This document shows, piece after piece, positions 1,978 to 55,682 of a stretch of 64,000 nucleotides of DNA. The translations under genes were made by a program, and so were the position numbers. The notes under the pieces were generated by a model that saw only the letters and a program-made list of their open reading frames with translations, searched no databases and was not told the origin of the DNA. The stretch's first letter is position 1. Every line of letters starts with the position of its first letter. Source of the stretch: a bacterium (GTDB lineage Bacteria; Patescibacteriota; Minisyncoccia; Phycocordibacterales; Zambryskibacteraceae); NCBI GenBank assembly GCA_030650605.1, contig JAUSDP010000100.1, positions 16,383 to 80,382 of the forward strand. Reading direction: 5' to 3'.

Positions 1978-2595
1978 ATGATCATGTTCAAATTAACAAA
2001 ACTGATATCAGCTATGTGCGTAATTGCCACAATTACTGGCTGTGCAGAAATGAAGAACCTTCAATCTGCGGCCAGCCAACTGCCACAAACGGCATCGAAG
2101 GCTTATCGCAATATCGTACCTGCAGAACCGCCCGAGCTCATTCGATTGCGCGAGGTATCAAAGGAAGATGACTCCATTTTGAATGCGCTCAATATGGTGA
2201 ACAAAGAGCATCCTGAACTCTCAAAACAAAAACTCTTGTGCGGTGGCACTTCGGATCCAGTTGAATTCAAATCGCAATCATATTCCTGGTCACCAGTACA
2301 GAAATTTCAGCTTTTTTGTACGTTGCCTGAAGACGTTCTTCGAGAGCGTGATACCGATTTGATAGCATATTCAAAAGCCATGGCAACTTATGCTGTTAAG
2401 CGTGGATCCAGAGAGCTTACTGGATTCGCAGTTCAAGCCCGCACAAAAGAGGATGCAGCCTTTCTCGAGACCGCTGTGGCATCCATCCTCAAAAATAAAG
2501 GGGTCCATTTAAATGTATTGGTCAACCCAAATGCCATGCCAACTTTGGCCATTCTGTCGCCAGGTCTGATCAAGCGCACTGTACGAGATCAGTAA
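1978..2595 (+). CDS. Putative lipoprotein, 205 aa
   Basis: Signal peptide ending in a lipobox-like ITGC (MIMFKLTKLISAMCVIATITGC). No catalytic motif recognised. Confidence 0.4.
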   Translation: MIMFKLTKLISAMCVIATITGCAEMKNLQSAASQLPQTASKAYRNIVPAEPPELIRLREVSKEDDSILNALNMVNKEHPELSKQKLLCGGTSDPVEFKSQSYSWSPVQKFQLFCTLPEDVLRERDTDLIAYSKAMATYAVKRGSRELTGFAVQARTKEDAAFLETAVASILKNKGVHLNVLVNPNAMPTLAILSPGLIKRTVRDQ

Positions 2596-2596
2596 A

Positions 2597-3271
2597 ATGA
2601 CACCAGAAATGACGAAATCAAGAAACACGCGAACGCGCGTACAGGTGTCGCCAATGATCACTCGAGCTGGTTCCGAATCGATTCGGGATTACAAGTTCTT
2701 AGCATCGCATCCAGACGTGCATTGCAATTCGGTTAGTGAATTTTCAAATATCGTCATTCGAGAATTCATCGATGCCAAGCCGTGGATGCAAACGTCTTGG
2801 AAATGGCAGATATCTCGGGCGAGCGAACGGATGTCAGGGAATACTGGCTGCCCACAATTTAATTTCATGGTATCAAACGACATTGAATTCGCTGTAAAAA
2901 ACGTGACGTCACGATTAATCATTGAAGCCGAAAAGGCTGCATGGAAGCAGACACTCGGCAATGGGGAAATCTCTTTTAACGATATCGAGACGCGCGTGAA
3001 TGCTAAGCTGGTATTACTGCAATCGAAAAGCAATTGCTTGGACACTGAAATAGAAGCGACATCGTGGAAGTATGTGCGATTGCATGATGACACCGTTGAT
3101 GCCATCATGAACGTTACCAAGCGACGTGTCTCATCTCTTCTTTCGAGCCAACAAAAGAATGGCTATGTTTGCAAAAATATTAGTGGATTCCTGCTCAGTG
3201 CGATGACATGGGCAACTCGTGGCGACAGTAGATTTTCGAAAATACTTAAACAGAGCTTGCGACAACAATGA
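2597..3271 (+). CDS. Hypothetical protein, 224 aa, translationally coupled to the downstream HAD-like gene
   Basis: ORF overlaps the next gene by 4 nt (ATGA-type coupling). No recognisable domain. Confidence 0.4.
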   Translation: MTPEMTKSRNTRTRVQVSPMITRAGSESIRDYKFLASHPDVHCNSVSEFSNIVIREFIDAKPWMQTSWKWQISRASERMSGNTGCPQFNFMVSNDIEFAVKNVTSRLIIEAEKAAWKQTLGNGEISFNDIETRVNAKLVLLQSKSNCLDTEIEATSWKYVRLHDDTVDAIMNVTKRRVSSLLSSQQKNGYVCKNISGFLLSAMTWATRGDSRFSKILKQSLRQQ

Positions 3272-3714
3272 TTGTATTCCTTGATATTGATGGTGTGCTG
3301 CATCCGGATCCCTGCTATGACAGAGACCTGCTACTTTCATGCTTGCCGAAGTTTGAGTCCGTGATCCGTGAGTTCCCAGGAGTTGAAATCGTAATAAGTA
3401 GCACCTGGCGTGAGAAAAGATCACTCACAGAATTGAGGGATCTTTTCTCACCCGATATCGCGCAAAGAATTATAGGAGTGACGCCCAGCTGGAAGGATCA
3501 TCAGGGCATTTTTAATAGAATTGGCTACCAACGTCATGCCGAAGTCGAAGCATGGCTGCGTGGGTCCTCAGAGCCATGGCGACGATGGGTGGCAATTGAT
3601 GACAAGCCATATTTGTTTCGACCATTTTCAAATCTCGTAAAGACCAAATCTGAGGTTGGATTCGATGATTTAAGTGAAATCGCACTACGCGATAAGCTAT
3701 CTGAAGCTGATTAG
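3268..3714 (+). CDS. Small HAD-superfamily hydrolase (phosphatase/5'-nucleotidase-like), paralog of 8593..9012
   Basis: N-terminal MIVFLDIDGVLH matches HAD motif I (DxDGV). The downstream ISSTWRE segment is shared with the paralog 8593..9012 (MIIFLDFDGVLH ... VISSSWRE). Confidence 0.55.
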   Translation: MIVFLDIDGVLHPDPCYDRDLLLSCLPKFESVIREFPGVEIVISSTWREKRSLTELRDLFSPDIAQRIIGVTPSWKDHQGIFNRIGYQRHAEVEAWLRGSSEPWRRWVAIDDKPYLFRPFSNLVKTKSEVGFDDLSEIALRDKLSEAD

Positions 3715-4019: not shown

Positions 4020-6917
4020 ATGCCAGGAATTACAACTAGAATGCAGATTGGTCGCCTTCACGAAATGAAGGGACTCCCTATAAGAACACGCAATCAGGTA
4101 AGAGCCATCCTCGCAGTCGACAGCGACGTATCATTGAAACTCCTAAATCAACTTCGGGTCGAGAAGTCGGCAGGAGAACTACTTCAAATAGAACGAGTTT
4201 TACGCTACGATTTTTTGAAAACCATCCCAATGGTCCCAGATCTCTTCCCTGAATTCCCACAGACGGGTGAAGAATATGATCGACTGGCTAAAATAGATAT
4301 TGCCAAAGAGATTGAAATACTCGATCTTTTGACGTTGCGATGGCATGAGAAACTTGTTTTGCTCCTTGCGGCTATGCGGCGCCTTGACTCGGCAATTACG
4401 ATGAGAAACTTCAACGAAGGTTCTGTTCTTGTTGGCCAGATATATGCTGAATTTGGTTACAGTCATTTTCTTATTCGTAAAGCAGCTTTACTTTATACCC
4501 ATGCTGCAGGAATTACGGCAATACCTGAAGTTGACTCGATTCTGAGCGAGGCAGGACTCGATAACAAAAATATCGCAATGTCCTCGCTTATCCATTGCTT
4601 TAAAGAGGAGCAGGACTTTCTCAGTTTGAAGCGCTCGATAATGAATTTGCCCCAAAGAGGTATTGCTAATAAATTTACGAGGGATGTGTGTCGACTCCCG
4701 TTTCATCCGTTCGCGAAGGATGCCGCTGACTTTGGTGAACTTCTACAAAGTTGGCGCCAATCGTCGCTTATCGATGCAATTATTGGTGCCAAGGTGAACG
4801 TCCATTTAGTGGAGGCTGAAAATGGACGTTCAGTAAATCTGCGGGCATTGTTCGCTCATATAGATTCAAACGCATTGTCCATCGATCGCATCTTATCTAT
4901 CTACGATCTGGAGGATCCGGATAGCGAGACAACATTCTACAAGCAATCGAGTGCTTGGCTAGAAAATGCATGCATAGTTAAGTATCGCACGCTCGTCGAC
5001 CATTTTTACAATTTTCCGGAGTCTGACTATTTTGAATTTAATCAGGAATTGATCGCAAGAATTGCCAATTGGGCTGCCCCAATTGACTTGGCGGTACTCG
5101 CTACCACTTCTAAACTTTCTCACACTGATTCTGCGAGCATGATGGCCCTTGAGAGCCTTGGAACAGTGACGCGATCAGCGATGTTTAACTTCTCAGTATT
5201 TAATGTCGAAGGGTATGCAAAAATCAGTGAGACAGAATTGTTATCATTGATGGGTAGCACTAGAGATTTGGCGAAAACAATTAACCACAAATTTCTAAGT
5301 AATATGGCAAAAATGTCAACGTCGAAGTTGTCGCGTCTGATACTCTATTTTTTAATTGCAAAAAAGAGCAAAAACGAACTCGATGATCACCAGCTAAGGC
5401 GAATTTTCCAGGGGATTGTCCTAACAGAACACAATGGAAGCATAGTAGAACTGTTTGATGCTTTAAGTAAGATGTCACGAGTTGTAGCTGAGTATGCGTA
5501 TGAGATTTGCACAGAGGACTTCATCGCAAAATTATTTCATATCATAAAAACATCTTCCGAAATCACTGAAACGCGAGCTAGTCTACATAAGTGGATGGGG
5601 AAACTTACTGGGGAAAAGGCGTACCTAGACCGTGCCAGGACTCTTTTGATCGACCACCAACTAAACAAAATTCGTAACGAGATCGATGACAACCGCATCT
5701 ATGTGGACGCAGCCCGATTTGCAGAGTGGATGAACGATGAGGTAGGGCGCGACTTGAACGGCATCTTGACAAGTATTGAACACAAAAGCGCATTACTAGA
5801 AGCTGCGGATCCTCAGCTCATGGCTATTGTGGAGCGATGCTATGTCAACTTTTGTTCAAATAAGATTTTTGGCATCGCTTCATATTTGGGGCGACGTATC
5901 CGTCATGGAACGTTCAAGGGGCACTTGTTTTCGAACGTTGTTTCCATCGAGAGAAAGAAGGAATATGAATATCTTCTTTCAGATCCAGTAGTCGCCTCGA
6001 AGTGGGTACGTTGGAAAGCCGATTACGAGAAGATTATCGATGAGATAATCGTTAGTCGCCTGCATATCGAATCGCCAGGCAAGCGCGAGGGGCTATTAAA
6101 ACCTAGCGTTAATACTGCATTGAAGCTAGAAACGCTTTCAGCGTGTGCGAGAAACATCGCCCGAGACTTTTCTGAATCAAATAGCTCGTTTGGTGCGATC
6201 CCCATCATCACCGAATATTGCTGGCGTTTGGCTGAACATGATTTGAAGGATATCAACGGGTATTTGAAGAGTAAAAAGGCGGCGTTGATAAACACTGACC
6301 TTTTAACAGATTTGAAATCGTGTGTTTACGGTTCAAACTTGGGTGTCGCTCGTGATTTTTGTCGGGAACTTGTTCGCCTTATTGACGACAAGTTATTGTC
6401 AATGTACAACTGGTTCAAAAAACCTGCGAACGTTTCGCCGCAAGCGTCATTATCACTACTATATAAAGCAGTCGTAGCAGAGGTGCGCGAGGCATTTCCC
6501 GAATTTGACACGAGCACTGATTTTGACGATGCCAGAGATATTAAACTAGTTGGTGGTGCGTACCATGTTCTGTACGACTCATTCTATGTCATTGTTTATA
6601 ACGCAGCGAAGCATGGCAAGGCAGGCGAGGAACTTGAGCGGAATTTCGAGCTCATTGATGATACCGTTGAGCGGCGAAAAATGCTGAACATTAATGTCAC
6701 GTCGCTGATTAAGGACAACGAAAGCGAGGACTATGTTAGGAGTAGACTCGTCTTGGATAGGACACAAGATCTTGATGATGCTCAGGTCTCAGAGGATCGG
6801 AGTGGAATCCGAAAATTGTATTTCCTGGAGCATTGGAATCGAGATTTTTGTATCGGTGATATTTATTGTCGAAATCGTAAAGTAACTGTGAACCTAACCC
6901 ATGCTTTGGAACACTGA
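4020..6917 (+). CDS. dtcA: Detocs DtcA-like sensor histidine-kinase-like protein, 965 aa
   Basis: Large N-terminal region without known domain. C-terminus carries a histidine-kinase ATPase N-box-like motif (VIVYNAAKHGKAGEE). Stop overlaps the start of the next gene (TGATG). The gene order matches the Detocs three-gene architecture. Confidence 0.55.
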   Translation: MPGITTRMQIGRLHEMKGLPIRTRNQVRAILAVDSDVSLKLLNQLRVEKSAGELLQIERVLRYDFLKTIPMVPDLFPEFPQTGEEYDRLAKIDIAKEIEILDLLTLRWHEKLVLLLAAMRRLDSAITMRNFNEGSVLVGQIYAEFGYSHFLIRKAALLYTHAAGITAIPEVDSILSEAGLDNKNIAMSSLIHCFKEEQDFLSLKRSIMNLPQRGIANKFTRDVCRLPFHPFAKDAADFGELLQSWRQSSLIDAIIGAKVNVHLVEAENGRSVNLRALFAHIDSNALSIDRILSIYDLEDPDSETTFYKQSSAWLENACIVKYRTLVDHFYNFPESDYFEFNQELIARIANWAAPIDLAVLATTSKLSHTDSASMMALESLGTVTRSAMFNFSVFNVEGYAKISETELLSLMGSTRDLAKTINHKFLSNMAKMSTSKLSRLILYFLIAKKSKNELDDHQLRRIFQGIVLTEHNGSIVELFDALSKMSRVVAEYAYEICTEDFIAKLFHIIKTSSEITETRASLHKWMGKLTGEKAYLDRARTLLIDHQLNKIRNEIDDNRIYVDAARFAEWMNDEVGRDLNGILTSIEHKSALLEAADPQLMAIVERCYVNFCSNKIFGIASYLGRRIRHGTFKGHLFSNVVSIERKKEYEYLLSDPVVASKWVRWKADYEKIIDEIIVSRLHIESPGKREGLLKPSVNTALKLETLSACARNIARDFSESNSSFGAIPIITEYCWRLAEHDLKDINGYLKSKKAALINTDLLTDLKSCVYGSNLGVARDFCRELVRLIDDKLLSMYNWFKKPANVSPQASLSLLYKAVVAEVREAFPEFDTSTDFDDARDIKLVGGAYHVLYDSFYVIVYNAAKHGKAGEELERNFELIDDTVERRKMLNINVTSLIKDNESEDYVRSRLVLDRTQDLDDAQVSEDRSGIRKLYFLEHWNRDFCIGDIYCRNRKVTVNLTHALEH

Positions 6918-7366
6918 TGAAAAACGTTCTGATTATTGAAGACGATAGCTTCAAAAGCGATAATCTCGCGACTTTTCTGAAGGCAAATATAGGAAATGCG
7001 AATATTTCGCTTGCTTCAGACGTTGCGAGCGGCGTTTCGGCTGTCGAACGAAAAATATTTGACCTAATAATAATTGACATGGCCTTGCCAAGCCACCCTG
7101 TGGTGTCTGGAGGAGGCGCGCCAATGTCTTTACTAAGTGGTGGGTTGGAAATTCTATTTGAACTACGCTCGCTCGATCGTACTGATTTTTGCATCATAGT
7201 CACTCAATATCCAGAAGTGGAAATCTCGGGAAATTACTTTCCGGTTGAAAAAGCAGCGGCAGCTATTAAGACTCATTTTGACTGTGATGTCGGGGCATGC
7301 ATAGAATACGCCGAAGCATCTAATGCCTGGAAATTCGAGTTAATAAACTTAATTAAAAACATATGA
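6917..7366 (+). CDS. dtcB: Detocs DtcB-like stand-alone receiver (response-regulator receiver domain only), 149 aa
   Basis: MKNVLIIEDD ... DLIIIDMALP is a CheY-like receiver with the phospho-acceptor Asp context. There is no output domain. It is coupled to both neighbouring genes. Confidence 0.6.
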   Translation: MKNVLIIEDDSFKSDNLATFLKANIGNANISLASDVASGVSAVERKIFDLIIIDMALPSHPVVSGGGAPMSLLSGGLEILFELRSLDRTDFCIIVTQYPEVEISGNYFPVEKAAAAIKTHFDCDVGACIEYAEASNAWKFELINLIKNI

Positions 7367-8580
7367 AGATTCTTGTACTCGAAGACGACTCAACTAAAAG
7401 TGAGCTCGTCAAAGCAGAGATATCCAGCGTAGACCTTGCTGTCAGCGTTGAGATTGTTAGTAATTTACGTGACTACACGATAAAGGTGGGGCAAAACGTT
7501 TACGATCTGATCATAGTTGATCTCGTCGTTCCGCAGTTTCCATTTGACGCCCAGGCGATCGACGTAACTGGTCAAATTATTGACATTACCAGAGACCAGG
7601 ACTGTCTGAATTTTCGCTCTCCGGTTCTCGCACTCACACGATACAACGAAAAGGCTGAGGCGCAATTCGAAGATCTCAACCGAAAAGACATAACGATCGT
7701 TACGTTCGATGAGGATTCTGGACGTTGGAAAGAGAGTATTCGTGAAAAGGTCCGCAGTTGCGAACCTCCGGTTCACTACCCGTTTGTGATAATTTGTGCG
7801 CTGGCCAAGGAGGCTGACGCATACGCTGCGGCCGGTTATCAAGTCGGGGAGCGCCAAACAATAAAAGGTCTAGCTTGCAGAGAGATTTCAATCGGATTAG
7901 TAGTAGGGGTAATTATTACGGCGCCAAGAATGGGATTGGTTAGCTCTGCTATAACCAGTACCCAAGCGATAGAGGCATTTAAACCTAAATTAATTTGCAT
8001 GAGTGGGATTTGTGGAGGAGTTCCGGAAAAAACAAAGATATACGATGTTGTGATACCAGATATCTGTCACCAAAACGATTCCGGAAAATGGACGAACGCT
8101 GGCTTTGAATCTGAAGGGTACAGTGTACAGCTTGAGCATGGTATGAAATTAAAGATAGACGAGCTCATATCAAAGCCTGCCTTTCTTGAAACGGTGAAGC
8201 GTGACGTGATCCTTCGACGTGCCGAATTCCCTGAAGGAGCTGACGTACTAGATTTCAAAATTATTATTGCACCTACTTCTAGTGGCAGTGCGGTCATTGC
8301 CGATAAGGAAATGGTAGAAATTCTTAAAGAGCAACACAGAAAACTATCAGCCTTCGAAATGGAATCTTTTGCTGTCTTCGAGGCTGCCCGTTTGGCGCCG
8401 ACAAAACCCCAGTATTTCAGCGCAAAGGCAGTTGTCGATGATGGATCTCCAAGCAAAGGTGATCTCTTCCATAGGGTGGCGTGTATTCTTTCTGCGAAAG
8501 TAGTCTATGAATGCATTAAGTCCGGCTTGCTTCTAAGCGGAGGGGTAAGTCTCGAAACAAAACGGGGGAACATCAGTTAA
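7363..8580 (+). CDS. dtcC: Detocs DtcC-like effector: N-terminal receiver domain fused to a purine nucleoside phosphorylase (PNP_UDP_1-like) domain, 405 aa
   Basis: N-terminus MKILVLEDD ... YDLIIVDLVVP is receiver-like. The C-terminal half has a PNP/MTA-nucleosidase-like glycine-rich loop (MSGICGGVP) and the hallmark EMES motif (SAFEMESFAVFEAA). 4-nt overlap with dtcB. Confidence 0.65.
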   Translation: MKILVLEDDSTKSELVKAEISSVDLAVSVEIVSNLRDYTIKVGQNVYDLIIVDLVVPQFPFDAQAIDVTGQIIDITRDQDCLNFRSPVLALTRYNEKAEAQFEDLNRKDITIVTFDEDSGRWKESIREKVRSCEPPVHYPFVIICALAKEADAYAAAGYQVGERQTIKGLACREISIGLVVGVIITAPRMGLVSSAITSTQAIEAFKPKLICMSGICGGVPEKTKIYDVVIPDICHQNDSGKWTNAGFESEGYSVQLEHGMKLKIDELISKPAFLETVKRDVILRRAEFPEGADVLDFKIIIAPTSSGSAVIADKEMVEILKEQHRKLSAFEMESFAVFEAARLAPTKPQYFSAKAVVDDGSPSKGDLFHRVACILSAKVVYECIKSGLLLSGGVSLETKRGNIS

Positions 8581-8592
8581 GGCGAAAGTGAT

Positions 8593-9012
8593 TTAACTTG
8601 CTAAAATTTTTCTCAGTTTAAGCTCTATGATTTCGTCAAGGCCTGAATTTGACTGACATAGCAATAAGTGTGGACATCCATCAGGAAACTCGGCATGTGC
8701 ATCATCAATAGCAAGCCAGGGTCCACCATAATGATTTAGAGTTATCCAGGCTAAAATTTCTTCATAGCGCGAATATGGTGGTTTACCGTCACCATTGGGC
8801 GTCATGCCAAGGATTCTATCCTGAATATCTTCCGAAAATAGTCCCCAAATAACTTCAGAAGGATAGGCCTCGCGCCAGGATGAGGAAATTACGACCATCA
8901 GAGAGGGAAATTCTCGAAGAATATTTTCAAACCTCGTTAAATGATAAAAATGGCCACGTTCTCCAGCTGGCGATGAATGCAAGACACCATCAAAATCCAG
9001 AAAGATGATCAT
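8593..9012 (-). CDS. Small HAD-superfamily hydrolase, paralog of 3268..3714, coupled to the hipA-like gene
   Basis: MIIFLDFDGVLH (HAD motif I) and VISSSWRE. The start overlaps the HipA-like stop by 4 nt. Confidence 0.55.
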   Translation of the reverse strand: MIIFLDFDGVLHSSPAGERGHFYHLTRFENILREFPSLMVVISSSWREAYPSEVIWGLFSEDIQDRILGMTPNGDGKPPYSRYEEILAWITLNHYGGPWLAIDDAHAEFPDGCPHLLLCQSNSGLDEIIELKLRKILAS

Positions 9013-10352
9013 CGCCGCAATTCCTTAAGCTGATTTATTTGATTCTGAATTGCATAATACCGGGCTCCAATAATATCGCTATCAACTCCTTGTTCCGCCA
9101 TCACATCCGATAGCCCTTCAATTTTGGACCCAAAAATTCGTAATGCATCGGTCACAGTCGCAAGCTCATCTGGATCCAGTTCCAATGACGCCAGCACGTC
9201 AGCCCAGTTGGTAATCTCTGTTTTGCCACGTTTCCATCTCAGTGCCCGGGCAATGCCTTCTTTATCTAGATTCATCGGGGCGAAATCAAATAATGGTGTC
9301 AGCTGCACCCGACCATTCACAATCTGGACAGCAGTATTTCTTGCATGGTTATCTGTGTTGCCCATGGCCAGATTGAGCACATCACGCTTTATGAACTCAA
9401 TGGTAGCAGCAGTTTTATCGGTGACATGCAAACGTATTGCCGCCAATAGATCATTTTGTGACGGTCTCTGATCAAAGCCAATCTGGCCAACCAACGAGGC
9501 GCCACTTTCTTGATGGCGCCGTTCTATGCCTGATTCCGTCACCAACCTATCGAAGCGCGGGATAAATAGCATATCCGCATGCCATTCGGGAAGCTCATCA
9601 ACAGCGAGCCCCAGAGCTTTCGTTGTACGCATAAATGCAGCTTCATTTTTGAGGATTTTCAAATCAGATGGGTCCCGTCCGCGCGAAAGCTTAACTAGAT
9701 AATGCTTCTTTGCGTGGGCATCAGGAATGGCACCATCAAGATAAAACAAATCATCTTTACCTAGCGTCAGCATGAATTTTGGTGCCACGCCTTGCAGGCC
9801 TGTGGTGCCGGCAGTGAGCATATTGTGACCAAAGATATTTTCAAGAAATTCATCCTTGCGCTCCAGGATGTCTTGAAGCTTGAATCCACGTTTTGTCAAC
9901 TCATCTTGACGCTCTGGATGGACCTCATAAAAACGTGCGGACTCTCTTACTCGTAACCTGCCTATTGGATTGATTGCGCCGGCACAAAGGAGCTGCCAGT
10001 CTGCTGAGGGGCCATCTTGCAGGTTGAGTTCGCCCAGGAGATATTTGCGTCCTTTGCCCTGCGGAATGAGATCAAATAGAAAAGATGGCCAGCGGTCTAA
10101 ATGTGTGGAATTCCTACTGACTGGAATGCGAAGAGATGCCGGAGAATTCTTGTAGTTGTGCACAAATTCAGAATCATAAGTTATCCGTGATGCACCGGTA
10201 CCGCCCAAGGCCGGTTTATCGATTTCGATAGTGCAGCATTCCCTCCACTGGCCATCAATATGAATTTCGAATTCGCATGTGTTCATAAACGTAGATTCAT
10301 GAATTTTGAGTTCGTGGATCAACGGAGCAGCCAACCAAAAATTAGTGTCCAT
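9009..10352 (-). CDS. hipA: HipA-family serine/threonine kinase toxin-like protein, 447 aa
   Basis: C-terminal HipA catalytic-loop signature GNTDNHARNTAV (GNxDxHxxN). The overall length and N-terminal region are consistent with full-length HipA. Confidence 0.7.
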   Translation of the reverse strand: MDTNFWLAAPLIHELKIHESTFMNTCEFEIHIDGQWRECCTIEIDKPALGGTGASRITYDSEFVHNYKNSPASLRIPVSRNSTHLDRWPSFLFDLIPQGKGRKYLLGELNLQDGPSADWQLLCAGAINPIGRLRVRESARFYEVHPERQDELTKRGFKLQDILERKDEFLENIFGHNMLTAGTTGLQGVAPKFMLTLGKDDLFYLDGAIPDAHAKKHYLVKLSRGRDPSDLKILKNEAAFMRTTKALGLAVDELPEWHADMLFIPRFDRLVTESGIERRHQESGASLVGQIGFDQRPSQNDLLAAIRLHVTDKTAATIEFIKRDVLNLAMGNTDNHARNTAVQIVNGRVQLTPLFDFAPMNLDKEGIARALRWKRGKTEITNWADVLASLELDPDELATVTDALRIFGSKIEGLSDVMAEQGVDSDIIGARYYAIQNQINQLKELRR

Positions 10353-10382
10353 TCAAATCTTCGATACACCATGAACCACATT

Positions 10383-10730
10383 TTATGTTTTGTAAGTTGC
10401 ATTGATTCCGTTGGCAGAGAGTACCAATAATATCTCAGACACATCTTTTCCCTGATCGGTATTAGGTACACTTTTCCCAAATTGTATTTTGGGATCTTGG
10501 TTTGCTTCAAGAATTACCGTGCGATTTCTCTCTGAAGTTAAATGAAGAACCAATGGGTCAGAATTTGGATCGTTGGCTTGTCTATCAACCAAATACTTTA
10601 AAGCAGAATGTACTGTTGAAATTTCAGACGTTTTCCATAATTTGATGAACACCTGTGTTTTATTGAGGCCCCTGTTCGAATCAGACAAATATTCGTATAG
10701 AGGGACATCTGGCGCCGTCGTTTTATCCAT
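10383..10730 (-). CDS. Hypothetical protein upstream of hipA-like gene (sits where HipB would be, but has no obvious HTH)
   Basis: 115-aa ORF 30 bp upstream of the HipA-like gene. No XRE-type helix-turn-helix detected. Confidence 0.35.
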   Translation of the reverse strand: MDKTTAPDVPLYEYLSDSNRGLNKTQVFIKLWKTSEISTVHSALKYLVDRQANDPNSDPLVLHLTSERNRTVILEANQDPKIQFGKSVPNTDQGKDVSEILLVLSANGINATYKT

Positions 10731-10735
10731 TATTC

Positions 10736-10936
10736 CTATCTCGGGTTGTAACCAGCTTCGACCAGTGCATTAGCGATCTTGTCGCATCCATCTCGCATTA
10801 AATATGCTTCTTCGTCATCCACTGCGTTTTGACGCCACTCCGAAAATCCGACACGCTTCAAAAATTGTGCTAGAGCTTGTGCTTCTTCGTCAGACAAAAG
10901 TGCTGTGATAGTTACCATAAGTTTTTCCTCTTTCAA
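10736..10936 (-). CDS. Small hypothetical protein, 66 aa
   Basis: Short ORF immediately upstream of and co-oriented with 10383..10730. Confidence 0.3.
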   Translation of the reverse strand: MKEEKLMVTITALLSDEEAQALAQFLKRVGFSEWRQNAVDDEEAYLMRDGCDKIANALVEAGYNPR

Positions 10937-11014: not shown

Positions 11015-11785
11015 TTATTGTTTAATTTTCCAGAAGACTTCAGCAACGCCTTTTGAAACACGCAATGCTACAAAGAACATTAATAAAAGAGGCCAAGTCC
11101 GGGTTCTTTGACTCCAATCTTCAGTGTCTTTTTTATCCAACATGACTGGAAGTTGAAGTACATAAGCTACTGTGTTGGCCTTCATACACCCGTAAACTCG
11201 AGTATGGCTGTAACCACTCGGCAATGCCACAGATAGGTCAATTGGAAACGGAGGGCAGGCAGCATTTAGCAGGGAAGCATCAATGATTCCATGACTCGAT
11301 AAGGCAGTGATAAGTACAGCCAATCGCCCGCATCCTTTTGCCTCTGTAGGTTGCTGCTCATTGCATTCTTCGTTTGCGGCCAATTTGAGCAGTTGAATGG
11401 CATCGTTACGGCTTTCTGACCATTGGCGTTCTATGCGCGCCCTAGATTCGTCAGCGGACACGACGAACAATTGAATAATAGCGAACACCACACCAATTGC
11501 GGATGCAGATACCCACAATAGATCGATAACTTTGAGATGAAAGGAAGTAATGCGCCTTGAAGCGATGCCCACAATCGAAGACAAGGTCACGATCGTGACA
11601 AGCATGTTTGTTGCAGCCCATTTACTTACTTGCATTACAGGGGCATCAATTCCAGGAAGACGCATGAAGCAGTAATACATTCCCGCAAGACCAATAAATG
11701 CTCCAAAGTAAGCCAGCTTTATTCTTGACGGCAATATTGACCACTGTGTAAACGATCTCTTAGCGAATTGAATTCCGTTGGCCAA
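11015..11785 (-). CDS. Integral membrane protein, 256 aa
   Basis: Several hydrophobic helices (e.g. LAYFGAFIGLAGMYYCF, NMLVTIVTLSSIVGIA, LLWVSASAIGVVFAIIQLFVV). Confidence 0.45.
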   Translation of the reverse strand: MANGIQFAKRSFTQWSILPSRIKLAYFGAFIGLAGMYYCFMRLPGIDAPVMQVSKWAATNMLVTIVTLSSIVGIASRRITSFHLKVIDLLWVSASAIGVVFAIIQLFVVSADESRARIERQWSESRNDAIQLLKLAANEECNEQQPTEAKGCGRLAVLITALSSHGIIDASLLNAACPPFPIDLSVALPSGYSHTRVYGCMKANTVAYVLQLPVMLDKKDTEDWSQRTRTWPLLLMFFVALRVSKGVAEVFWKIKQ

Positions 11786-11880: not shown

Positions 11881-14800
11881 CTACATTTCGCGACCGTAAT
11901 ACTTTTCCTTTTCTCTCTCTCTTACTGGCTCAATTTTTACGACTTCAATCTCTTTGATTTTTGTCTTCTCTACTTCTGGTTCCGCTAAATTGATTGCAAA
12001 TTCTTTGAGTGCTTCCTTATTATTTTTTGTTGCCCACAGCGTGTCCTGGAGAGCTTGTAGACCACCCTTTTCATTCGTAATCCTGATGTCCAAATTGTTT
12101 TCAACTATCAATTCGATTACCTGCTTTTTAAATTTAGGCGAGCCCATTAGGCCGATTTCGGGACCAATAGTTTCTCGGGCAGACTTCAATTGCTCAAGCA
12201 AGGAAGGTGGTTTAGAAAATTGTCCCGTTATAAGATCCTTTTCAGGCCGAATATATTCACATCGAGTTTTAGAATTCCATGCATCATTTCCATTTACAAA
12301 TGCGGACTTTAAAAGAATCGGTTTCTCGTCATTTAATCTTTTCGCTAGCTCTTCTTTTGTGGGTTCAATCGCTCGATCGTGCACAAGTTTTACGCCGACT
12401 TCCAAAAACGTTTTTTCTACATCTTCAACATTGCGAGCGTCAGTAAATAGCACAACAGATCGCGGCCCCATTACTGATCGCGTGGAGTTTGTGTATATCG
12501 AGTTGTAATCGCCCCGGTCCTTTCTTGGGACGTACATTAGAACTTGAGCGCGGTTGCTTATTGTGGGATCCTCTTTAGTCCCATCGGGATTACTAAAAAT
12601 TTTTGTTGAAGCTGTCCCGCCCTGGCTTGAGTGACCAGTTGCACTGTAGCCCCATCGAATAGAAAGTCCTCTACCTTGGTCGGGCAAAGGTACTTTGATA
12701 ATTTTACTTGTGCTCACAATTTTTACGGTAGCAATTCGCTTTTCAAAATCAATATTTTCAACGATTCCTCTATCGCCATTAAGTATTCCTAATTTTTCAT
12801 TTGCCGCAGTAAAACGAATGCGTTCACCAGGACAAATCTTAATGCGTTCCTCAACGCCCAGCGAGACACCAGCGCTTTGCGTCATCGGAGAATAGTCGTA
12901 TTCGACAGTTTTAGGGTTGAGTCCATTTTTATCAGTAATTGTGCGTGCAAGCTTAACGATGGATCCTTCTACGCGTAAAACTTCGCACGCTTCACCTTTT
13001 TGGAATGGTGAATGTGGAGAATTCATATTAAAAAATACAGTGCTGCCTGACTCGTATTGCGCAGGATTCCGCAAGTCTTGAGTCGTCAGATTTCCGAACC
13101 GTTCAAATGAATTGATTTCTAATCCACGAGTTTTTTCGATTCCAATTTTTTCACGGATGGCGATATTTAACAGTCTCCGATCTTCATTTGTTTTCGTGAT
13201 GCAGAAAGTGTTATCTCGTGCTGCTTCAGTGAGTTCGTTGTAATACGTTGCCATTTCTTTTAAGCATTCGTCTTCTGTGTTCCTCACCACAATTCGATTT
13301 TTCTCACTCATATAAACCAGTCCTTCTGCCGGACTTTTAAAGCATAAACTATGAATTTTAATTGTCTCCTGATCTTTTCCCCGTTGCATTTCGGTGAGCT
13401 CTTTAAATGCATTTTCTGATGGATTGCCTCTTATAAAATCCGAAACATGTTTTAACGGTGCTCCGGCGCCCACGGAGTGATACTGATCATAATCTCCTGA
13501 AAGAATTATTCGACACTGGTGCTCGTTTGCTTTTTCTAAAAGTTCCAACATAGATCGAGCATCAACTAAACCTGCCTCATCAATAATTACAATCGAACCC
13601 TTTTGGATATTCTCTTCCCACCATTTTTCACTGAGCGCAGCCTTTTGGGTGGTTATTACATGAGGAAAATATGTATCCATCCCTGATCCATTAGTTTTCT
13701 CCCTAAGATACACAGAGTCAGCAAGTGCTTCCTTGGCTTTCCCAGACGGTGCCTGGCCAAACACGCGAACCCGAGAGGCCTCTGCGCAGCGCTGTAAAAG
13801 ATCCATCGATGTGCTCTTGCCAGTGCCAGCGCGACCAAGAACAACTGAAATCCCAGAGGTAGTAGTGAGCGCCATGTAGGTAGCTTCCTTCTGCCCCTTA
13901 CTAAGTTTGAAACCTTTTTCTGCTTCATATTGCAACACAATGGCATCAAACAATGCCCGGTCGCAAACCGGTTTAAAACGAGCGAAATTTTCTTTTACTA
14001 GTCTCTCAATTTTTTGTTCGCACTCGACCAGCTCGCGAGTAGTGAGTGAGCGACCATCGTTTTGCATAATGAGTTCACCTGAGAGTATTTTCTCCTCAAT
14101 TTTTTGTTGGAGAATCTCTGGCTCCAGTTGATAGAGTCCTTCTTTCAACATTTGTGTAAGCAGGGCTTCTTTGCTGCGTATCGTCGAAATTCTCTCAGTG
14201 AGACCTTGAGAAGCCATTTGATAGGCCAGCTCGGGCGTTCGCTTCTCCAACCTATGTGCTCGCCCATATTCTTGTGCGAGCTCAACTCGTTTTCGAAGAT
14301 CCTCTATAAAGACTGGATGGAGTTCTTTGTTCAGCGGATTCTCAGCCTTATATTTCCACCATGCTTGAGCGGCCGCCAATCCCGTGGCGGCATCATTAAT
14401 TGGATCGTCAAACGCACTGAAATCGAAAGAATCTTTGCCGCCGCGAGAGGCAGCATTTGCGGTATCTCGATCATGCTTGCTATTTATATCGAGATAGATA
14501 CCGTGCTTAGGATGAGATGGGTCTTCTCGTAATTTGTTCTGGGAAGAGATCCATTCTGGAATTCTCAGAGAGGAGCCGTCCGCGAAGACTTCGATGTCGT
14601 TCCTGGAGAAACCAGATAATTCATAGCCGTCCTTGGTATCATAAAATACGTAACCTTTATCTTCCAGAAAGAGACGTTCGGCTGTTTTTCCGATTGCATC
14701 AAGCAAGTGCTGGTTTTCATAAACTTTACCGAATGCGATGGCCCTTAAACTGCCAGCGCAATCTACAGTGTGCGTAGCTCTAGTGGAGTGAGAATGAATT

Positions 14801-15603
14801 TGTGGATCCAAGCCTCCATCGCCCTTTTCGTTTGGCCTGGATACAGTGTGCATGCACTGCACCCACATCATATTGTCGCCTTTGACCATCCATACATCTT
14901 TTTTGGGATCCACCAATTTAAGTACAGGAACATCAACTCCTGCTTCCTGGCATGCTTTGATTTCAGTGCCTGTCATTCTGTACTCAAGCAAGTATTTCTC
15001 TGTGAATTCAGCTATAGCGGTATCGCCGGCAAGGTGGCCTTTCAAGAAGTTTTCATCGTCAAACACGAGACCTTGCACTGACAAAGACTTTGAATTCGCC
15101 CAATTTCCTTCGAAGCCAATCGTAGAATTTCGTGTTTTTTTAGCGTTTTCTTTGAACGCATTGAGGTCCTTTTTTTGTGCATCTGTGAACGATTTTAGTG
15201 CTTTCTTTTGCTGGCTTTTGAACTCAGTTTTATCGATATTGGAGAGATTTTGATTTCGCAAAAAGCGATCTTTTGTTTTCTCTTGGGCGTTCACAAACTC
15301 TGCTTTTGCTAACTTATGTATGAGCTTCTGTTTCGCCAGGTCTTCATTGGGGCCTCTTTTATAGTCGCGCCTGGTAACTTGCAGCTCCGGTGAATCACCG
15401 AATTTTCCATCGAGAATTTCTGAAAAACGCTCTTCTGAATACTTTGCAAAGCGATCTCCTCCAAGTTTTTCAAGCATTTTTCCTTTAAATTGGTTGGCAT
15501 AATCAGCATGATCTCCTTCCCGATATTTCTGTTGATAGTTATCTGATTTCCTATAACTAGCTATTTGACTCGAGTTGCCAGCAAGTGCATTTTCTGTGTA
15601 CAT
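11881..15603 (-). CDS. traI: MOBF-family conjugative relaxase-helicase (TrwC/TraI-like), 1240 aa
   Basis: N-terminal Tyr-rich relaxase motif I (SYRKSDNYQQKYREGDHADYANQFKGK...LG, matching the TrwC YY...WxG pattern). 3-His motif III (LDPQIHSHSTRATH). Internal Walker A (VVLGRAGTGKST) of the TraI/RecD-like helicase domain. A K-rich insertion separates motif I from motif III. Confidence 0.85.
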   Translation of the reverse strand: MYTENALAGNSSQIASYRKSDNYQQKYREGDHADYANQFKGKMLEKLGGDRFAKYSEERFSEILDGKFGDSPELQVTRRDYKRGPNEDLAKQKLIHKLAKAEFVNAQEKTKDRFLRNQNLSNIDKTEFKSQQKKALKSFTDAQKKDLNAFKENAKKTRNSTIGFEGNWANSKSLSVQGLVFDDENFLKGHLAGDTAIAEFTEKYLLEYRMTGTEIKACQEAGVDVPVLKLVDPKKDVWMVKGDNMMWVQCMHTVSRPNEKGDGGLDPQIHSHSTRATHTVDCAGSLRAIAFGKVYENQHLLDAIGKTAERLFLEDKGYVFYDTKDGYELSGFSRNDIEVFADGSSLRIPEWISSQNKLREDPSHPKHGIYLDINSKHDRDTANAASRGGKDSFDFSAFDDPINDAATGLAAAQAWWKYKAENPLNKELHPVFIEDLRKRVELAQEYGRAHRLEKRTPELAYQMASQGLTERISTIRSKEALLTQMLKEGLYQLEPEILQQKIEEKILSGELIMQNDGRSLTTRELVECEQKIERLVKENFARFKPVCDRALFDAIVLQYEAEKGFKLSKGQKEATYMALTTTSGISVVLGRAGTGKSTSMDLLQRCAEASRVRVFGQAPSGKAKEALADSVYLREKTNGSGMDTYFPHVITTQKAALSEKWWEENIQKGSIVIIDEAGLVDARSMLELLEKANEHQCRIILSGDYDQYHSVGAGAPLKHVSDFIRGNPSENAFKELTEMQRGKDQETIKIHSLCFKSPAEGLVYMSEKNRIVVRNTEDECLKEMATYYNELTEAARDNTFCITKTNEDRRLLNIAIREKIGIEKTRGLEINSFERFGNLTTQDLRNPAQYESGSTVFFNMNSPHSPFQKGEACEVLRVEGSIVKLARTITDKNGLNPKTVEYDYSPMTQSAGVSLGVEERIKICPGERIRFTAANEKLGILNGDRGIVENIDFEKRIATVKIVSTSKIIKVPLPDQGRGLSIRWGYSATGHSSQGGTASTKIFSNPDGTKEDPTISNRAQVLMYVPRKDRGDYNSIYTNSTRSVMGPRSVVLFTDARNVEDVEKTFLEVGVKLVHDRAIEPTKEELAKRLNDEKPILLKSAFVNGNDAWNSKTRCEYIRPEKDLITGQFSKPPSLLEQLKSARETIGPEIGLMGSPKFKKQVIELIVENNLDIRITNEKGGLQALQDTLWATKNNKEALKEFAINLAEPEVEKTKIKEIEVVKIEPVREREKEKYYGREM

Positions 15604-22309: not shown

Positions 22310-22442
22310 CAGGCAAGCAAGCAAAATATCAATCAATTTGGAGAATTAAGATCAAAAAAGAATGCTTGCTCAATTGGAAGCGAAACGACATTTTGGCGTT
22401 GAAATATAATGTTCCCAATCAAAACCAAAGACCCCATAAAAA

Positions 22443-22676
22443 ATGAGCGATACCAATTCCAAAATCCCTACGGGCGCCGAAGTCAAAGCAATGCGAATTG
22501 CGGCCGGAATGACGCAGAAAGAGTGCGCGGAGCGTTTTGGATACCAGGTCGTGCGCAGCTGGCAAAAGAAAGAAGAGACTGGTCCCAGTGCTCGTGAGCT
22601 CACTCTGGGGGAGTGGGAGCTCCTTATGCTCTTAGCTGGCCAGCATCCAGAATTTACTCTGGAACCCAAAACTTAA
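22443..22676 (+). CDS. Small XRE-family helix-turn-helix protein, 77 aa
   Basis: AMRIAAGMTQKECAERFGYQVVRSWQKKE is a classic HTH_XRE pattern. Confidence 0.5.
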   Translation: MSDTNSKIPTGAEVKAMRIAAGMTQKECAERFGYQVVRSWQKKEETGPSARELTLGEWELLMLLAGQHPEFTLEPKT

Positions 22677-44281: not shown

Positions 44282-45088
44282 CTATTCAATCTCCAAGACT
44301 TCAATTAAGCAAGCCCACTGAAATCCCGGATTCTCAAATTTAAGTTCTTTCGTCGATGCAGCATTGTTACGATTTCTGGCATATCCGAGGGGGTTCGCTA
44401 CAACCCGGCATCCATTTACGACATAATCAAAACTATCGTGCACATGCCCGTGCAGCCATAGGCTTGTTTTCCCTAATAGCTCTTCGAGATTCCCGCTAAC
44501 GAATGCGGCATTCAACGGTTCCCCGATATAGCGCGGGTGGACCGACGATGGGTGAGGTCCGTGATGGGTTACGACAACTGTCTTGCCGTCGTAAGGGGTA
44601 TTCAATTGGTTTAGCAGCCATGCTCGTGACTTATTATGTTCTCCTAGCGCGTGGGCTGGCATAAACACACCTCCGCGTGTTTTTATAATGCGATGGTCAT
44701 TTAGGCTTAGTTCTGCCACTTCCATTAACTGTCGTTGCGTCCTATTACATGGCAGTAGGTAGTCAGTCCACATCGTGCAGCCTAAGAACCTAACGCCGCC
44801 GAAATCCACTACAGAGTTATCCATAAATCGAACAGATGTGCCCTCAGCAGCGCGGTGGAGATCTTCGCGTAGCTTTTCGAACGAATACCCATAGAATTCA
44901 TGGTTGCCAGCTAAATACAGCACAGGCACCGGCCAGTCGTGGAACAACTCTATCGCCTCGGTGCCATTCGATATATCTCCAGCGAGCACGAGTGCGTCTG
45001 CGCCAGCTGCCGGCGAAATTAGCCGTGTTCCAGGAGAATCCCTCTGAAAAAACTCGAGATGTAAATCGGATGCAAGTTGAATTTTCAT
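44282..45088 (-). CDS. Calcineurin-like metallophosphoesterase, 268 aa (paralog 1 of 4)
   Basis: The five MPP motifs in order: SDLHLE, LAGDISNG, LAGNHEFYG, VVTHHGP and HGHVHDS. Confidence 0.7.
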   Translation of the reverse strand: MKIQLASDLHLEFFQRDSPGTRLISPAAGADALVLAGDISNGTEAIELFHDWPVPVLYLAGNHEFYGYSFEKLREDLHRAAEGTSVRFMDNSVVDFGGVRFLGCTMWTDYLLPCNRTQRQLMEVAELSLNDHRIIKTRGGVFMPAHALGEHNKSRAWLLNQLNTPYDGKTVVVTHHGPHPSSVHPRYIGEPLNAAFVSGNLEELLGKTSLWLHGHVHDSFDYVVNGCRVVANPLGYARNRNNAASTKELKFENPGFQWACLIEVLEIE

Positions 45089-53114: not shown

Positions 53115-53921
53115 TTAAATTTCTATTATAAAATTAGGATCGAAATCAACGTTTTCCCCTTGTCCACTCGATAAATGATACCCGCGCGGATTGCATACAA
53201 CCCTGCAAGAACCGATTTCATAATCGGATGACGTATGCATATGGCCGTGCATCCAAAGATCCGCCTGCGATGCCAATTCATCCAAATTGGACGCATAGGC
53301 GGCCGAGATAATGTCCGCTAAAAACCGTTCTGGAACCGATAGCATTGACGGTGCCATGTGCGTAACGACTACCGTCTTGCCGGCGAATGGTTCCGCGAGC
53401 TTGTCTCGAATCCAATTGCGCTGCTCTGCATGAAAACGTGCGGTATCTGGCGTCCTCATTTTTTTGTATCCACGACTCTCCAGGCGGATACGGTGGTAGT
53501 CGTTCATACCATTCTCGGCTTCATACATCGCGGCTTGTCTTTTATCGGCGCCAAACAAATTGAAGTCTGTCCAGAGCGTCGCGCCTAGGAACCGTACATC
53601 GCCTAGGCGCCATTCTTTGGAATTCAAAAATTGGACATTCTCAGTAAGCTGGCAGGCATCTTCAATATCTCTTTGTGCTTGCTCCAGCTTGTGTCCATAG
53701 CCTTCGTGGTTACCATGCACGTACAGCACCGGAATCCCAGAAAACGTCTGTGTTGCCCAAGGAATTGCTTTGGCGCCAGTATGAATGTCGCCAGCCAGGA
53801 TCACCACATCGGGCCGACTCAAATTGATATCGACCTGCAGTGCGGTTTTTCCCCAATGCTCCAGATGGAGATCCGATAGAACTAAGAGTCTCAATTCAGT
53901 GCTCTCCTGGGCGCCATGCAT
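53115..53921 (-). CDS. Calcineurin-like metallophosphoesterase, 268 aa (paralog 2 of 4)
   Basis: SDLHLE, LAGDIHTG, VHGNHEGYG, VVTHMAP and HGHMHTS. Confidence 0.7.
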   Translation of the reverse strand: MHGAQESTELRLLVLSDLHLEHWGKTALQVDINLSRPDVVILAGDIHTGAKAIPWATQTFSGIPVLYVHGNHEGYGHKLEQAQRDIEDACQLTENVQFLNSKEWRLGDVRFLGATLWTDFNLFGADKRQAAMYEAENGMNDYHRIRLESRGYKKMRTPDTARFHAEQRNWIRDKLAEPFAGKTVVVTHMAPSMLSVPERFLADIISAAYASNLDELASQADLWMHGHMHTSSDYEIGSCRVVCNPRGYHLSSGQGENVDFDPNFIIEI

Positions 53922-54427: not shown

Positions 54428-54933
54428 AATTCGTCCGCGCCTTTTTTTAATAGTTGTGCAAGCAGTGTTTCAGAATCGCGCGGGCGATAAGCAAACCTAT
54501 TCGCTCTGGCATCTGACAGCGCATGGTGTTGGACCTCTGAAGGATTTTTTTTAAAATATTCGTACAAGAGCAATTCATTAAAATCTGATCCACAAAGTCT
54601 CGGCTTCACCCAACTCGGAATCCGGTATTGAATCACCTGAGAAAACAGATCCCAATCTGCTGTGTAATCAAAACAGACTATGATGTCTTCATCTTTTCTT
54701 CTTATAATTTCAAGCCATGTCTGAATCCTCCGCGGCATTTCACTGAGTGAACAAAAGGCGTTTGGTTCTCGCCCCAAGTATGGGATCACCGCCTCTCTCA
54801 CAAATGCAGTGCATTTATTGTCCGGGTACGGAACTTCGGCATAAAACTCTTCACCTGTGTCCGCGACCATGCCAATGCTGATAAGGATCGGATCCAATAG
54901 GTCGGTGAATTCAGTATCAATGAATACGTTCAT
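54424..54933 (-). CDS. DEDDh-family 3'-5' exonuclease (DnaQ/RNase T-like), 169 aa
   Basis: Exo I FIDTEFTD, Exo II CFDYTADWDLF and Exo III HHALSDARAN (H-x4-D). Confidence 0.6.
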   Translation of the reverse strand: MNVFIDTEFTDLLDPILISIGMVADTGEEFYAEVPYPDNKCTAFVREAVIPYLGREPNAFCSLSEMPRRIQTWLEIIRRKDEDIIVCFDYTADWDLFSQVIQYRIPSWVKPRLCGSDFNELLLYEYFKKNPSEVQHHALSDARANRFAYRPRDSETLLAQLLKKGADEL

Positions 54934-55682
54934 TTGGAAACCATCTTTTCTCTATGTTGTTGACGTTGTGCATCCTGTTCACCAGGCCTTATGATTTCGA
55001 TTTCCCATGTCTCGGTATCCAAAGACGTGATGCCTCGCAGACCCACGCCATAGGGCCGGAATCCTTCCTGCGCTGGATACTTTAAGCTGTCGTGTTGATG
55101 GCCGTGGAATGATTTTAGAAGCCGTTGGTTGCCGATACCTAAGTTGCGGGCGAGGTCACTGATCAAATCGGATCCATACGGATGGGCCCCTGGCGCGTCG
55201 TGCGTAATCAGGACATCCGCGCGTTCACCAATCAGGCCGAAATACTCATTTGGGAAAATGGTACTGCGATGTTTAAGCGGCAGCCCACCACGCCAATGAT
55301 TACCTTTTCCACATTTCTTAAGGTATTCGGCCGGTGATTCGAATTCAGGATTGTCCTGGGGCATCCATACCTTCGATCTGAATACTCCTCCGAGTCCAGC
55401 AATACGGATTCCGGCGATTTCGACAACGCGTGAATGTAGATTTCTATCTGAAAGTTTTGAGTGGAATAGGTTGTCGTAATCTGACTCAGAGTCCGTGTCG
55501 TGATTTCCAGGGATCCACCAGATTTCAGTTAGTGAGATGATCTCGACTAGTTCAATTTCTAGCGATCGCAGCGCCTGTTGATCACCCAATAAAATGACAG
55601 CTGCCGGCCTGTGGTCTCTCACAGCTTTGATGATGTGATTAAAGTGGCCGTGAGGATCGCCACAGAAAAAGATTGTGCCCAT
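54930..55682 (-). CDS. Calcineurin-like metallophosphoesterase, 250 aa (paralog 3 of 4)
   Basis: CGDPHGH, LLGDQ, IPGNHD, LITHDAP and HGHQHDS. Confidence 0.65.
   Translation of the reverse strand: MGTIFFCGDPHGHFNHIIKAVRDHRPAAVILLGDQQALRSLEIELVEIISLTEIWWIPGNHDTDSESDYDNLFHSKLSDRNLHSRVVEIAGIRIAGLGGVFRSKVWMPQDNPEFESPAEYLKKCGKGNHWRGGLPLKHRSTIFPNEYFGLIGERADVLITHDAPGAHPYGSDLISDLARNLGIGNQRLLKSFHGHQHDSLKYPAQEGFRPYGVGLRGITSLDTETWEIEIIRPGEQDAQRQQHREKMVSK

Follow-up and report, generated by a model that had tools for sequence, protein, structure and literature searches.

A predicted HAD phosphatase gene takes the hipB position in a reverse-order hipA module of a MobF-type plasmid

Genes of the hipA-HAD locus

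The window analysed here is a stretch of 64 kb (64,000 nucleotides of contig JAUSDP010000100.1) that carries, on its minus strand, a gene for a HipA-family Ser/Thr kinase, hipA, followed directly by a gene for a small stand-alone protein of the HAD superfamily, named HAD139 after its 139 residues. Read from Met23 the kinase gene lies at 10286..9009 (425 aa), within an open reading frame (ORF) that stays open up to 10352 (10352..9009, 447 aa) and holds the HipA motif AMGNTDNHARNTAV, while HAD139, a predicted capless phosphatase of the HAD_SAK_2 family, occupies 9012..8593. The two genes share the four nucleotides ATGA (9009..9012, minus strand, read from the sequence), in which the HAD start lies over the hipA stop, and a Shine-Dalgarno-like AAGGA motif is found inside hipA, 8 nt 5' of the HAD ATG. 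A sequence-only reading of this DNA had described a HipA-motif protein joined by a 4-nt overlap to a downstream HAD-family gene, and the ORFs, the Pfam matches and the ATGA junction were all confirmed. The stop/start overlap also occurs in two related plasmid loci, L081 and L082, where the end of hipA and the start of the HAD gene fall at one coordinate.

Homologues align to the kinase only from Met23 onwards (94-95% query coverage), and the DNA homology to L081 begins 3 nt 5' of the Met23 ATG, as seen by blastn and in the junction sequences; the most likely start of the kinase is therefore Met23 at 10286, giving the protein of 425 aa. The Met23 ATG lacks an obvious Shine-Dalgarno sequence on its 5' side, and the sequence 5' of hipA in the window has no conserved counterpart in L081. 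The pair forms the last part of a run of minus-strand genes that are read in the same direction and begin with a relaxase gene; between the relaxase and hipA-HAD no promoter or terminator stands out, a consensus scan giving no more hits than expected from shuffled sequence. Searches with PADLOC and PHROGs returned no defence-system or phage-function assignment for hipA-HAD.

The kinase is matched by the Pfam families HipA_C (PF07804; 99.9 bits, 2e-28, cut-off 30.5) and Couple_hipA (PF13657; 27 bits, 6.5e-6, cut-off 22.5, residues 54-135 of the 447-aa ORF), and it is assigned to the full-length HipA type, not to the split HipT type. Profile matches to solved HipA and HipT structures were obtained at 1e-8 to 5e-7, and in the profile alignment the catalytic loop TDNHARN pairs with TDGHAKN of the E. 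coli protein and the Mg-binding LFDF with FYDI. An alignment of 28 sequences, the kinase and 27 homologues, has 90 invariant columns in common, and D312, H314, N317, D334, G163, Q165 and K170 are invariant in 28/28 kinases. The Gly-rich loop of the kinase, GTTGLQG, contains two Thr residues, and we infer that it is the counterpart of the Gly-rich loop in E. coli HipA. Loss of the catalytic-loop Asp and His, which the sequence-only reading had named as an argument against an active kinase, was checked and not seen, both residues being conserved in alignments that include solved E. coli HipA.

HAD139 gives a clear match to HAD_SAK_2 (PF18143; 89.1 bits, 4e-25, cut-off 27.5). Its residues D6 and D8, which form the DxD nucleophile motif (HAD motif I), S43 of motif II (S/T) and D103 and D104 of motif IV (DD) are invariant across 34 homologues, and codon alignment of the three known HAD-linked alleles (window, L081 and L082) gave a ratio of non-synonymous to synonymous substitution (dN/dS, omega) of 0.09-0.14. 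Judged by these residues HAD139 is catalytically intact, and it is strongly constrained. The AlphaFold2 (AF2) model has a mean predicted local distance difference test (pLDDT) score of 92.8 and appears to correspond to a minimal capless HAD, for which the nearest solved folds are MDP-1, the 3'-phosphatase of T4 Pnkp and the SCP1/CTD phosphatases, all of them weak matches (Foldseek E of at least 0.06). These are enzymes with macromolecular substrates, and because the matches are weak they do not separate a protein from a nucleic-acid substrate for HAD139.

Gene order in relatives and limits of the unit

Upstream of hipA and on the same strand lie two small ORFs, p115 (10730..10383, 115 aa, without a Pfam match) and p66 (10936..10736, 66 aa, Pfam DUF7706), both judged to be outside the module. 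The sequence-only reading had measured the locus against the arrangement with hipB upstream of hipA. This was the wrong comparison, since hipB lies downstream of hipA in the clade, and the argument that an HTH is missing from the upstream ORFs is beside the point. From more than 1100 homologues of the kinase, most of them in Burkholderiales, 80 genome loci (HipA 43-68% identical) and seven further contigs were sampled, 87 loci altogether. In these relatives the downstream neighbour of hipA encodes an XRE-type helix-turn-helix (HTH) protein of about 100 aa, HipB; a copy recognised by the HipB profile was present in 85/87 loci (HipA 43-72% identical), in 84 of those 85 on the same strand as hipA and typically at -29 to +25 nt relative to the stop codon of hipA. 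The order of genes in this clade, as read from the sampled loci, is the reversed one, hipA followed by hipB. The only loci without a downstream HipB (2/87) are L081 and L082, in which HipA is 89-90% identical to that of the window and a HAD_SAK_2 gene is found instead. As 85 of the 87 relatives carry HipB in this slot and the exceptions carry the HAD gene, the comparison of gene order makes a solid case that the HAD gene occupies the hipB position of a reverse-order hipAB module.

No relative of the HAD gene, of p115 or of p66 was found in any of the 80 genome loci (80/80) of HipA relatives. A profile built from the HipB proteins of the relatives detected no HipB-like ORF in the 64-kb window, the top match (E = 0.003) being at an unrelated locus, 22440-22673, and HAD139, p115 and p66 are unrelated to the clade HipB profile (hhalign probability at most 0.2%). 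The earlier description of the locus as an atypical HipA module lacking HipB was in this way borne out. The comparative evidence is solid for a derived form of a reverse-order hipA-hipB module, carried by a conjugative plasmid of the MobF type, in which a predicted HAD phosphatase gene has replaced hipB within one lineage.

The limits of the unit were obtained from the two sister loci. By blastn L081 shares three blocks with the window at about 91-94% identity, namely the 3' end of the relaxase gene, 10289..8581 with hipA and HAD, and the surroundings of a second HAD gene. The hipA-HAD unit (8581..10289, minus strand, the extent of DNA homology to L081) is 90.7% identical, and the homology ends 12 nt past the HAD stop. 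L081 is without p66, p115 and the next upstream gene, p256, so that its hipA starts 82 nt past the relaxase stop, and it has other genes in place of a three-gene system that the window carries on the plus strand. L082 is 99.5-100% identical to the window over both flanks of the unit, p115/p66 on one side and the three-gene system on the other (100% over the p66-p115 segment), but the identity is 84-94% within hipA-HAD, and near the second HAD gene it is 85-93%. From these alignments the plasmid backbones are about 10% diverged and hipA-HAD is part of the backbone; diverged hipA-HAD next to near-identical flanks indicates that p66-p115 and the defence genes are recently exchanged cargo. The unit so delimited by sequence comparison is exactly two ORFs, which are retained jointly while both flanks turn over.

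These observations also bear on the proposal that p115 or p66 (DUF7706) is a real, novel antitoxin. Both are directly 5' of hipA on the same strand and neither has a known function, which speaks for such a role. L081, however, carries hipA-HAD without either ORF, and in L082 the p66-p115 segment is identical to that of the window although hipA-HAD is 6-16% different. No homologue of p115 is found beyond this element, and neither ORF is HipB-like. We therefore rejected both as antitoxin candidates, being absent from the hipA-HAD locus of L081, exchanged separately and unrelated to HipB, and we consider a role of this kind very improbable. For the 115-aa protein, which had been offered earlier as an alternative antitoxin, the possibility is effectively excluded. 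It is an ORFan, finding only itself (6 contigs) among 5.8 billion proteins, and its single-sequence AF2 model reached a pLDDT of only 47, and p115 is a putative gene.

The window as a whole is plasmid DNA, with two Rep3-type initiators, ParA/ParB, a TrwC/MobF relaxase-helicase and a tyrosine integrase. The relaxase-helicase gene that heads the minus-strand run lies at 15603..11881 (minus strand, 1240 aa; Pfam TrwC, AAA_30 and TraI_hel_assoc_N), and p256, a membrane protein of 256 aa, is listed at 11785..11015 (minus strand). The window also encodes an MmeI-type restriction-modification enzyme, and a DUF4258 and Aca2/YdiL pair is probably a separate toxin-antitoxin module. The plus-strand operon convergent with HAD139, whose stop is 12 nt away, spans 4020..8580 and encodes proteins of 965 aa, 149 aa (receiver only) and 405 aa (receiver plus PNP/nucleosidase). 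These match the PADLOC candidate PDC-M60 A/B/C (E of 3e-14, 1.5e-21 and 5e-59), and the architecture is the same as that of Detocs, a two-component system for defence whose effector is an ATP nucleosidase (bioRxiv 10.1101/2023.01.24.525353). As the operon is 100% identical in L082, in spite of a backbone divergence of about 10%, and absent from L081, it is mobile cargo. Also on the plus strand, an overlapping operon at 1978..3714 encodes a putative lipoprotein of 205 aa, a protein of 224 aa and then the second HAD_SAK_2 protein (3268..3714, 148 aa; PF18143 at 1e-28, 40% identical to HAD139); the 205-aa and 224-aa proteins have no Pfam match, and the trio is also present in L081 and L082. Four genes for calcineurin-like metallophosphoesterases (Metallophos) are located on the minus strand at 44285-45088, 53118-53921, 54933-55682 and 55685-57382, 35-48 kb from HAD139, and their products are 25-62% identical to those adjoining HAD_SAK_2 genes on other elements.

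Selection on the kinase and the possible role of HAD139

In 81 HipB-linked kinases 96 alignment columns show a conservation of 95% or more, and 95 of these are kept in all three HAD-linked alleles, the sole shared change being A116S. The overall dN/dS of hipA among these alleles, codon-aligned, is 0.20-0.26. When the first 170 residues and the kinase core were treated separately, with 127 similarly diverged HipB-linked pairs for reference, the core gave an omega of 0.10-0.14 against a median of 0.19 in the HipB-linked pairs, while residues 1-170 (about 10286..9777) gave 0.36-0.45 against a median of 0.15, which is at or above the 98th percentile of the 127 pairs, a comparison that is descriptive, given the non-independence of the pairs. 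The amino-acid changes are concentrated in two stretches, at about residues 43-70 and 100-155. With its catalytic residues kept and the gene under purifying selection, the kinase is predicted to be active, and the fast N-terminus fits an altered constraint on a regulatory or partner surface after the loss of hipB in a kinase that would still be active.

The same figures can be read differently, in that the kinase may have been inactivated or retargeted and may no longer be a toxin in need of an antidote. Such a change could account for the 2-3 times higher rate, scaled to synonymous change, at which the N-terminal 170 residues evolve in comparison with HipB-linked relatives, and for the alteration of A116, an otherwise invariant position, in all three alleles. 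A kinase of that kind would hardly be expected to keep its catalytic loop, Mg-binding Asp and Gly-rich loop together with nearly all of the conserved columns, or a core with so low an omega, and we find this explanation improbable.

An intact hipA without a linked hipB is of interest, since E. coli does not tolerate hipA in the absence of hipB, and by analogy an intact antitoxin-less hipA calls for a neutralising factor. It is tempting to speculate that HAD139 is this factor, as the sequence-only reading had suggested, or at least an enzyme that counters HipA. This is a tentative reading that falls somewhat short of an even chance; it is proposed from the position of the gene and the class of the enzyme. 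In such a scheme HipA would still phosphorylate a translation factor, for instance an aminoacyl-tRNA synthetase, like its relatives, and HAD139 would be co-translated with it as a counter-activity. In the leading version HAD139 would remove the phosphate that HipA places on its target, for which neither DNA binding nor a tight complex would be needed. In a second version it would remove an inhibitory autophosphate from the Gly-rich loop of HipA, where the two Thr residues are located, and would then be a re-activator and not an antidote. Without a DNA-binding antitoxin the pair would have no conserved promoter or operator of its own, and hipA-HAD would probably be expressed by read-through from upstream genes. 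The more specific proposal, that HAD139 is a catalytic antitoxin which strips HipA's phosphate from an aminoacyl-tRNA synthetase or another target and thereby replaces HipB without transcriptional autoregulation, we regard as rather unlikely, though worth stating. The exact replacement in the slot, the intact and constrained kinase without HipB, the joint retention of both genes and the enzyme class together make a functional pair plausible.

HAD139 might also act as a conventional, type II-like antitoxin that blocks HipA stoichiometrically and has no DNA-binding domain, its chemistry being irrelevant. The positional and co-conservation evidence would serve this explanation just as well as it serves a counter-enzyme, and the accelerated N-terminal domain of HipA could reflect a new binding partner. 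Yet the catalytic residues of the HAD protein are strictly kept and its constraint is typical of an enzyme, and a tight cognate complex is disfavoured by the independent recombination of the HAD and hipA alleles; the chance that HAD139 works in this manner appears slim.

Several observations weigh against HAD139 as a counter-enzyme of HipA. The pairing is known from one shallow lineage with three alleles (89-92% HipA identity). Within it the hipA and HAD alleles differ in their relationships among the three plasmids and a recombination breakpoint lies inside the HAD gene, so the two are not strictly co-inherited. The HAD_SAK_2 family comprises 19,620 representative clusters, and homologues are found in 2026 PLSDB plasmids, 1766 of them conjugative, many from Klebsiella, E. 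coli and Salmonella; it also occurs in phage contigs. Across 159 HAD_SAK_2 loci (80 metagenome and 79 viral) hipA adjoined the HAD gene in none (0/159), and a scan of viral sequences with HipA gave no match. In the 80 metagenome loci the operonic neighbours were Metallophos genes in 11/65 and further HAD copies in 6/65 cases, and the nearest homologues of HAD139 beyond this lineage (51-73% identity) are either preceded by unrelated genes or adjoin metallophosphoesterases. HAD_SAK_2 genes often overlap the preceding gene, of whatever kind, by 4 nt, a habit that deprives the ATGA junction of value as specific evidence for coupling to hipA. The best 150 of the 19,620 HAD representatives are stand-alone or tandem HADs, and the ten longer ones among them that were checked are without a kinase domain, so that no HipA-HAD fusion was seen. 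In the literature searched we met no Hip kinase with a phosphatase as its antitoxin or partner. A mechanistic difficulty comes in addition, as autophosphorylation beside the Gly-rich loop is regarded as the off-switch of Hip kinases. A phosphatase working on HipA itself would for that reason be expected to re-activate the toxin, and only action on the target would be antidotal. Given these promiscuous contexts, the HAD_SAK_2 family as such is not a HipA partner, as far as gene neighbourhoods can tell, and any cooperation between HAD139 and HipA, if real, would have been recruited recently.

This family-wide pattern is what would be expected if the juxtaposition were fortuitous, with a generic plasmid or phage HAD gene left behind an orphan hipA after a rearrangement removed hipB. 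HAD139 would then serve purposes of its own, such as the healing of RNA ends or phospho-esters together with metallophosphoesterases, and HipA would be tolerated through weak expression, through self-limitation by autophosphorylation or through a HipB acting in trans from outside the window. In line with this, HAD_SAK_2 partners across the family are Metallophos and other HAD proteins and not HipA, and the window itself holds the second HAD_SAK_2 gene and the four Metallophos-like genes. One of the 159 loci, L123, has two HAD and Metallophos pairs followed by hipA about 0.8 kb downstream, and a Variovorax plasmid carries a Metallophos-HAD pair 3 kb from a complete, unlinked hipB-hipA; both contexts suggest that HAD_SAK_2 and hipA are no more than frequent cargo of plasmids. 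The family's habit of overlapping the gene before it, the Met23 start lacking an obvious Shine-Dalgarno sequence, the want of a conserved promoter, the single-lineage distribution and the independent recombination of hipA and HAD can all be accommodated, and antitoxin-less, monocistronic Hip kinases do exist, namely HipH/YjjJ and HipL (PMC8262856). On the other side, chance would have had to place the HAD gene precisely where the antitoxin gene belongs, hipA has remained intact, its core under more constraint than usual, over a dS of about 0.25 since the loss of hipB, the two ORFs are retained jointly while their flanks turn over, and a HipB-like gene is absent from the 64 kb. As for an RNA-repair set of kinase, ligase and phosphoesterase, to which the name of the family points, no RNA ligase or P-loop kinase adjoins HAD139, the neighbours being hipA and the convergent Detocs-like gene. 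A fortuitous origin of the pair is, in our judgement, about as likely as a counter-enzyme role of HAD139 and likewise falls short of an even chance.

A few further observations concern the family itself. The closest homologue of HAD139 outside the lineage (73% identity; L254:571-1547) overlaps by 4 nt an upstream gene for a protein of 184 aa, the N-terminus of which looks by eye like an XRE-type HTH (…ETISRAKKRGDMHLGTMARLASVVGLELVLQP). The plasmid homologues (about 36% identity, about 2000 plasmids) are annotated merely as 'HAD domain-containing protein' and come mostly from Enterobacterales, including Klebsiella, Escherichia, Salmonella, Enterobacter and Citrobacter; on the IncFIB/IncHI1B virulence plasmids of Klebsiella (L252) the gene is located among hypothetical and DsbA/thioredoxin-like genes. 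HAD_SAK_2 and Metallophos make up a recurrent, uncharacterised plasmid gene pair, also seen at loci L168, L169, L172, L123 and L253.

Comparison with known systems

Hip kinases are the founding persistence toxins and, to our knowledge, every Hip family described so far either is partnerless or has a protein that binds and neutralises it, be it HipB, HipS, a HipS-like domain or an Stl-like repressor. If HAD139 does counter HipA, with a phosphatase in place of the antitoxin, the locus would demonstrate that type II modules are able to change over to antidote-by-reversal. It would also offer a direct handle on the substrate of HipA, as the target of HAD139 would be the target of HipA, and would provide the first function within HAD_SAK_2, which has about 20,000 protein clusters and is common on conjugative plasmids. 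If the pairing is accidental, the locus would still show an intact hipA that selection maintains in nature without a cis-encoded antitoxin.

Enzymatic antidotes are known from other systems. In DarTG the ADP-ribose added by DarT is removed by DarG, and the type VII systems HepT/MntA and TglT/TakA also have antidotes that are enzymes. Under the proposed mechanism the hipA-HAD pair would resemble these in having a catalytic antidote that opposes the chemistry of the toxin and does not sequester or repress it. It differs from them in that the activity of HAD139 is a prediction and that a Hip kinase/phosphatase pair is undescribed in the literature searched. With regard to the enzyme, SCP1/FCP1-type phosphatases and MDP-1 dephosphorylate phospho-Ser or other phospho-protein substrates. 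They have a minimal capless HAD core, as is predicted for HAD139, and are among its best, though weak, structural matches (template modelling (TM) scores of 0.5-0.59, Foldseek E of at least 0.06), whereas the sequence identity is only 10-15%. HAD139 is a bona fide member of the HAD_SAK_2 proteins of plasmids and phages, with the DxD motif, the predicted capless fold and a stand-alone length of about 140 aa; the usual neighbours of these proteins are metallophosphoesterases or HAD copies, and the upstream neighbour of HAD139 is in contrast a HipA kinase.

The HipBA system of E. coli K-12 has a kinase of the same superfamily, and solved HipA structures can be aligned with the present kinase at the catalytic loop and the Mg-binding Asp. 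The relationship is distant, however (profile E of about 1e-8), the gene order is the opposite, and the upstream HTH repressor HipB, which binds both HipA and the operator, has no equivalent in the window. In the published catalogue of Hip modules (Gerdes, Baerentsen and Brodersen 2021, mBio, PMC8262856) 10 organisations are listed, and a phosphatase is part of none of them. Inclusion in that catalogue generally required an adjacent putative antitoxin gene for a DNA-binding protein (PMC8262856), and a module of the hipA-HAD type would generally not have been retained. Reversed hipA-hipB order is known there in subclades of clades VI and VII and in HipE (PMC8262856). With the reverse-order hipAB/hipEB modules the present locus shares the full-length kinase with N-subdomain-1 and the core motifs, the toxin gene in first place and the stop/start overlap, and its nearest kinase relatives (43-72% identity) are exactly such modules. 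It departs from them in the downstream gene, which encodes a predicted HAD phosphatase in place of the HTH protein HipB and leaves the kinase without a DNA-binding partner. Overall, our comparative data indicate a genuine, narrowly distributed variant of the Hip kinase modules, one that has a predicted HAD phosphatase where the antitoxin would be.

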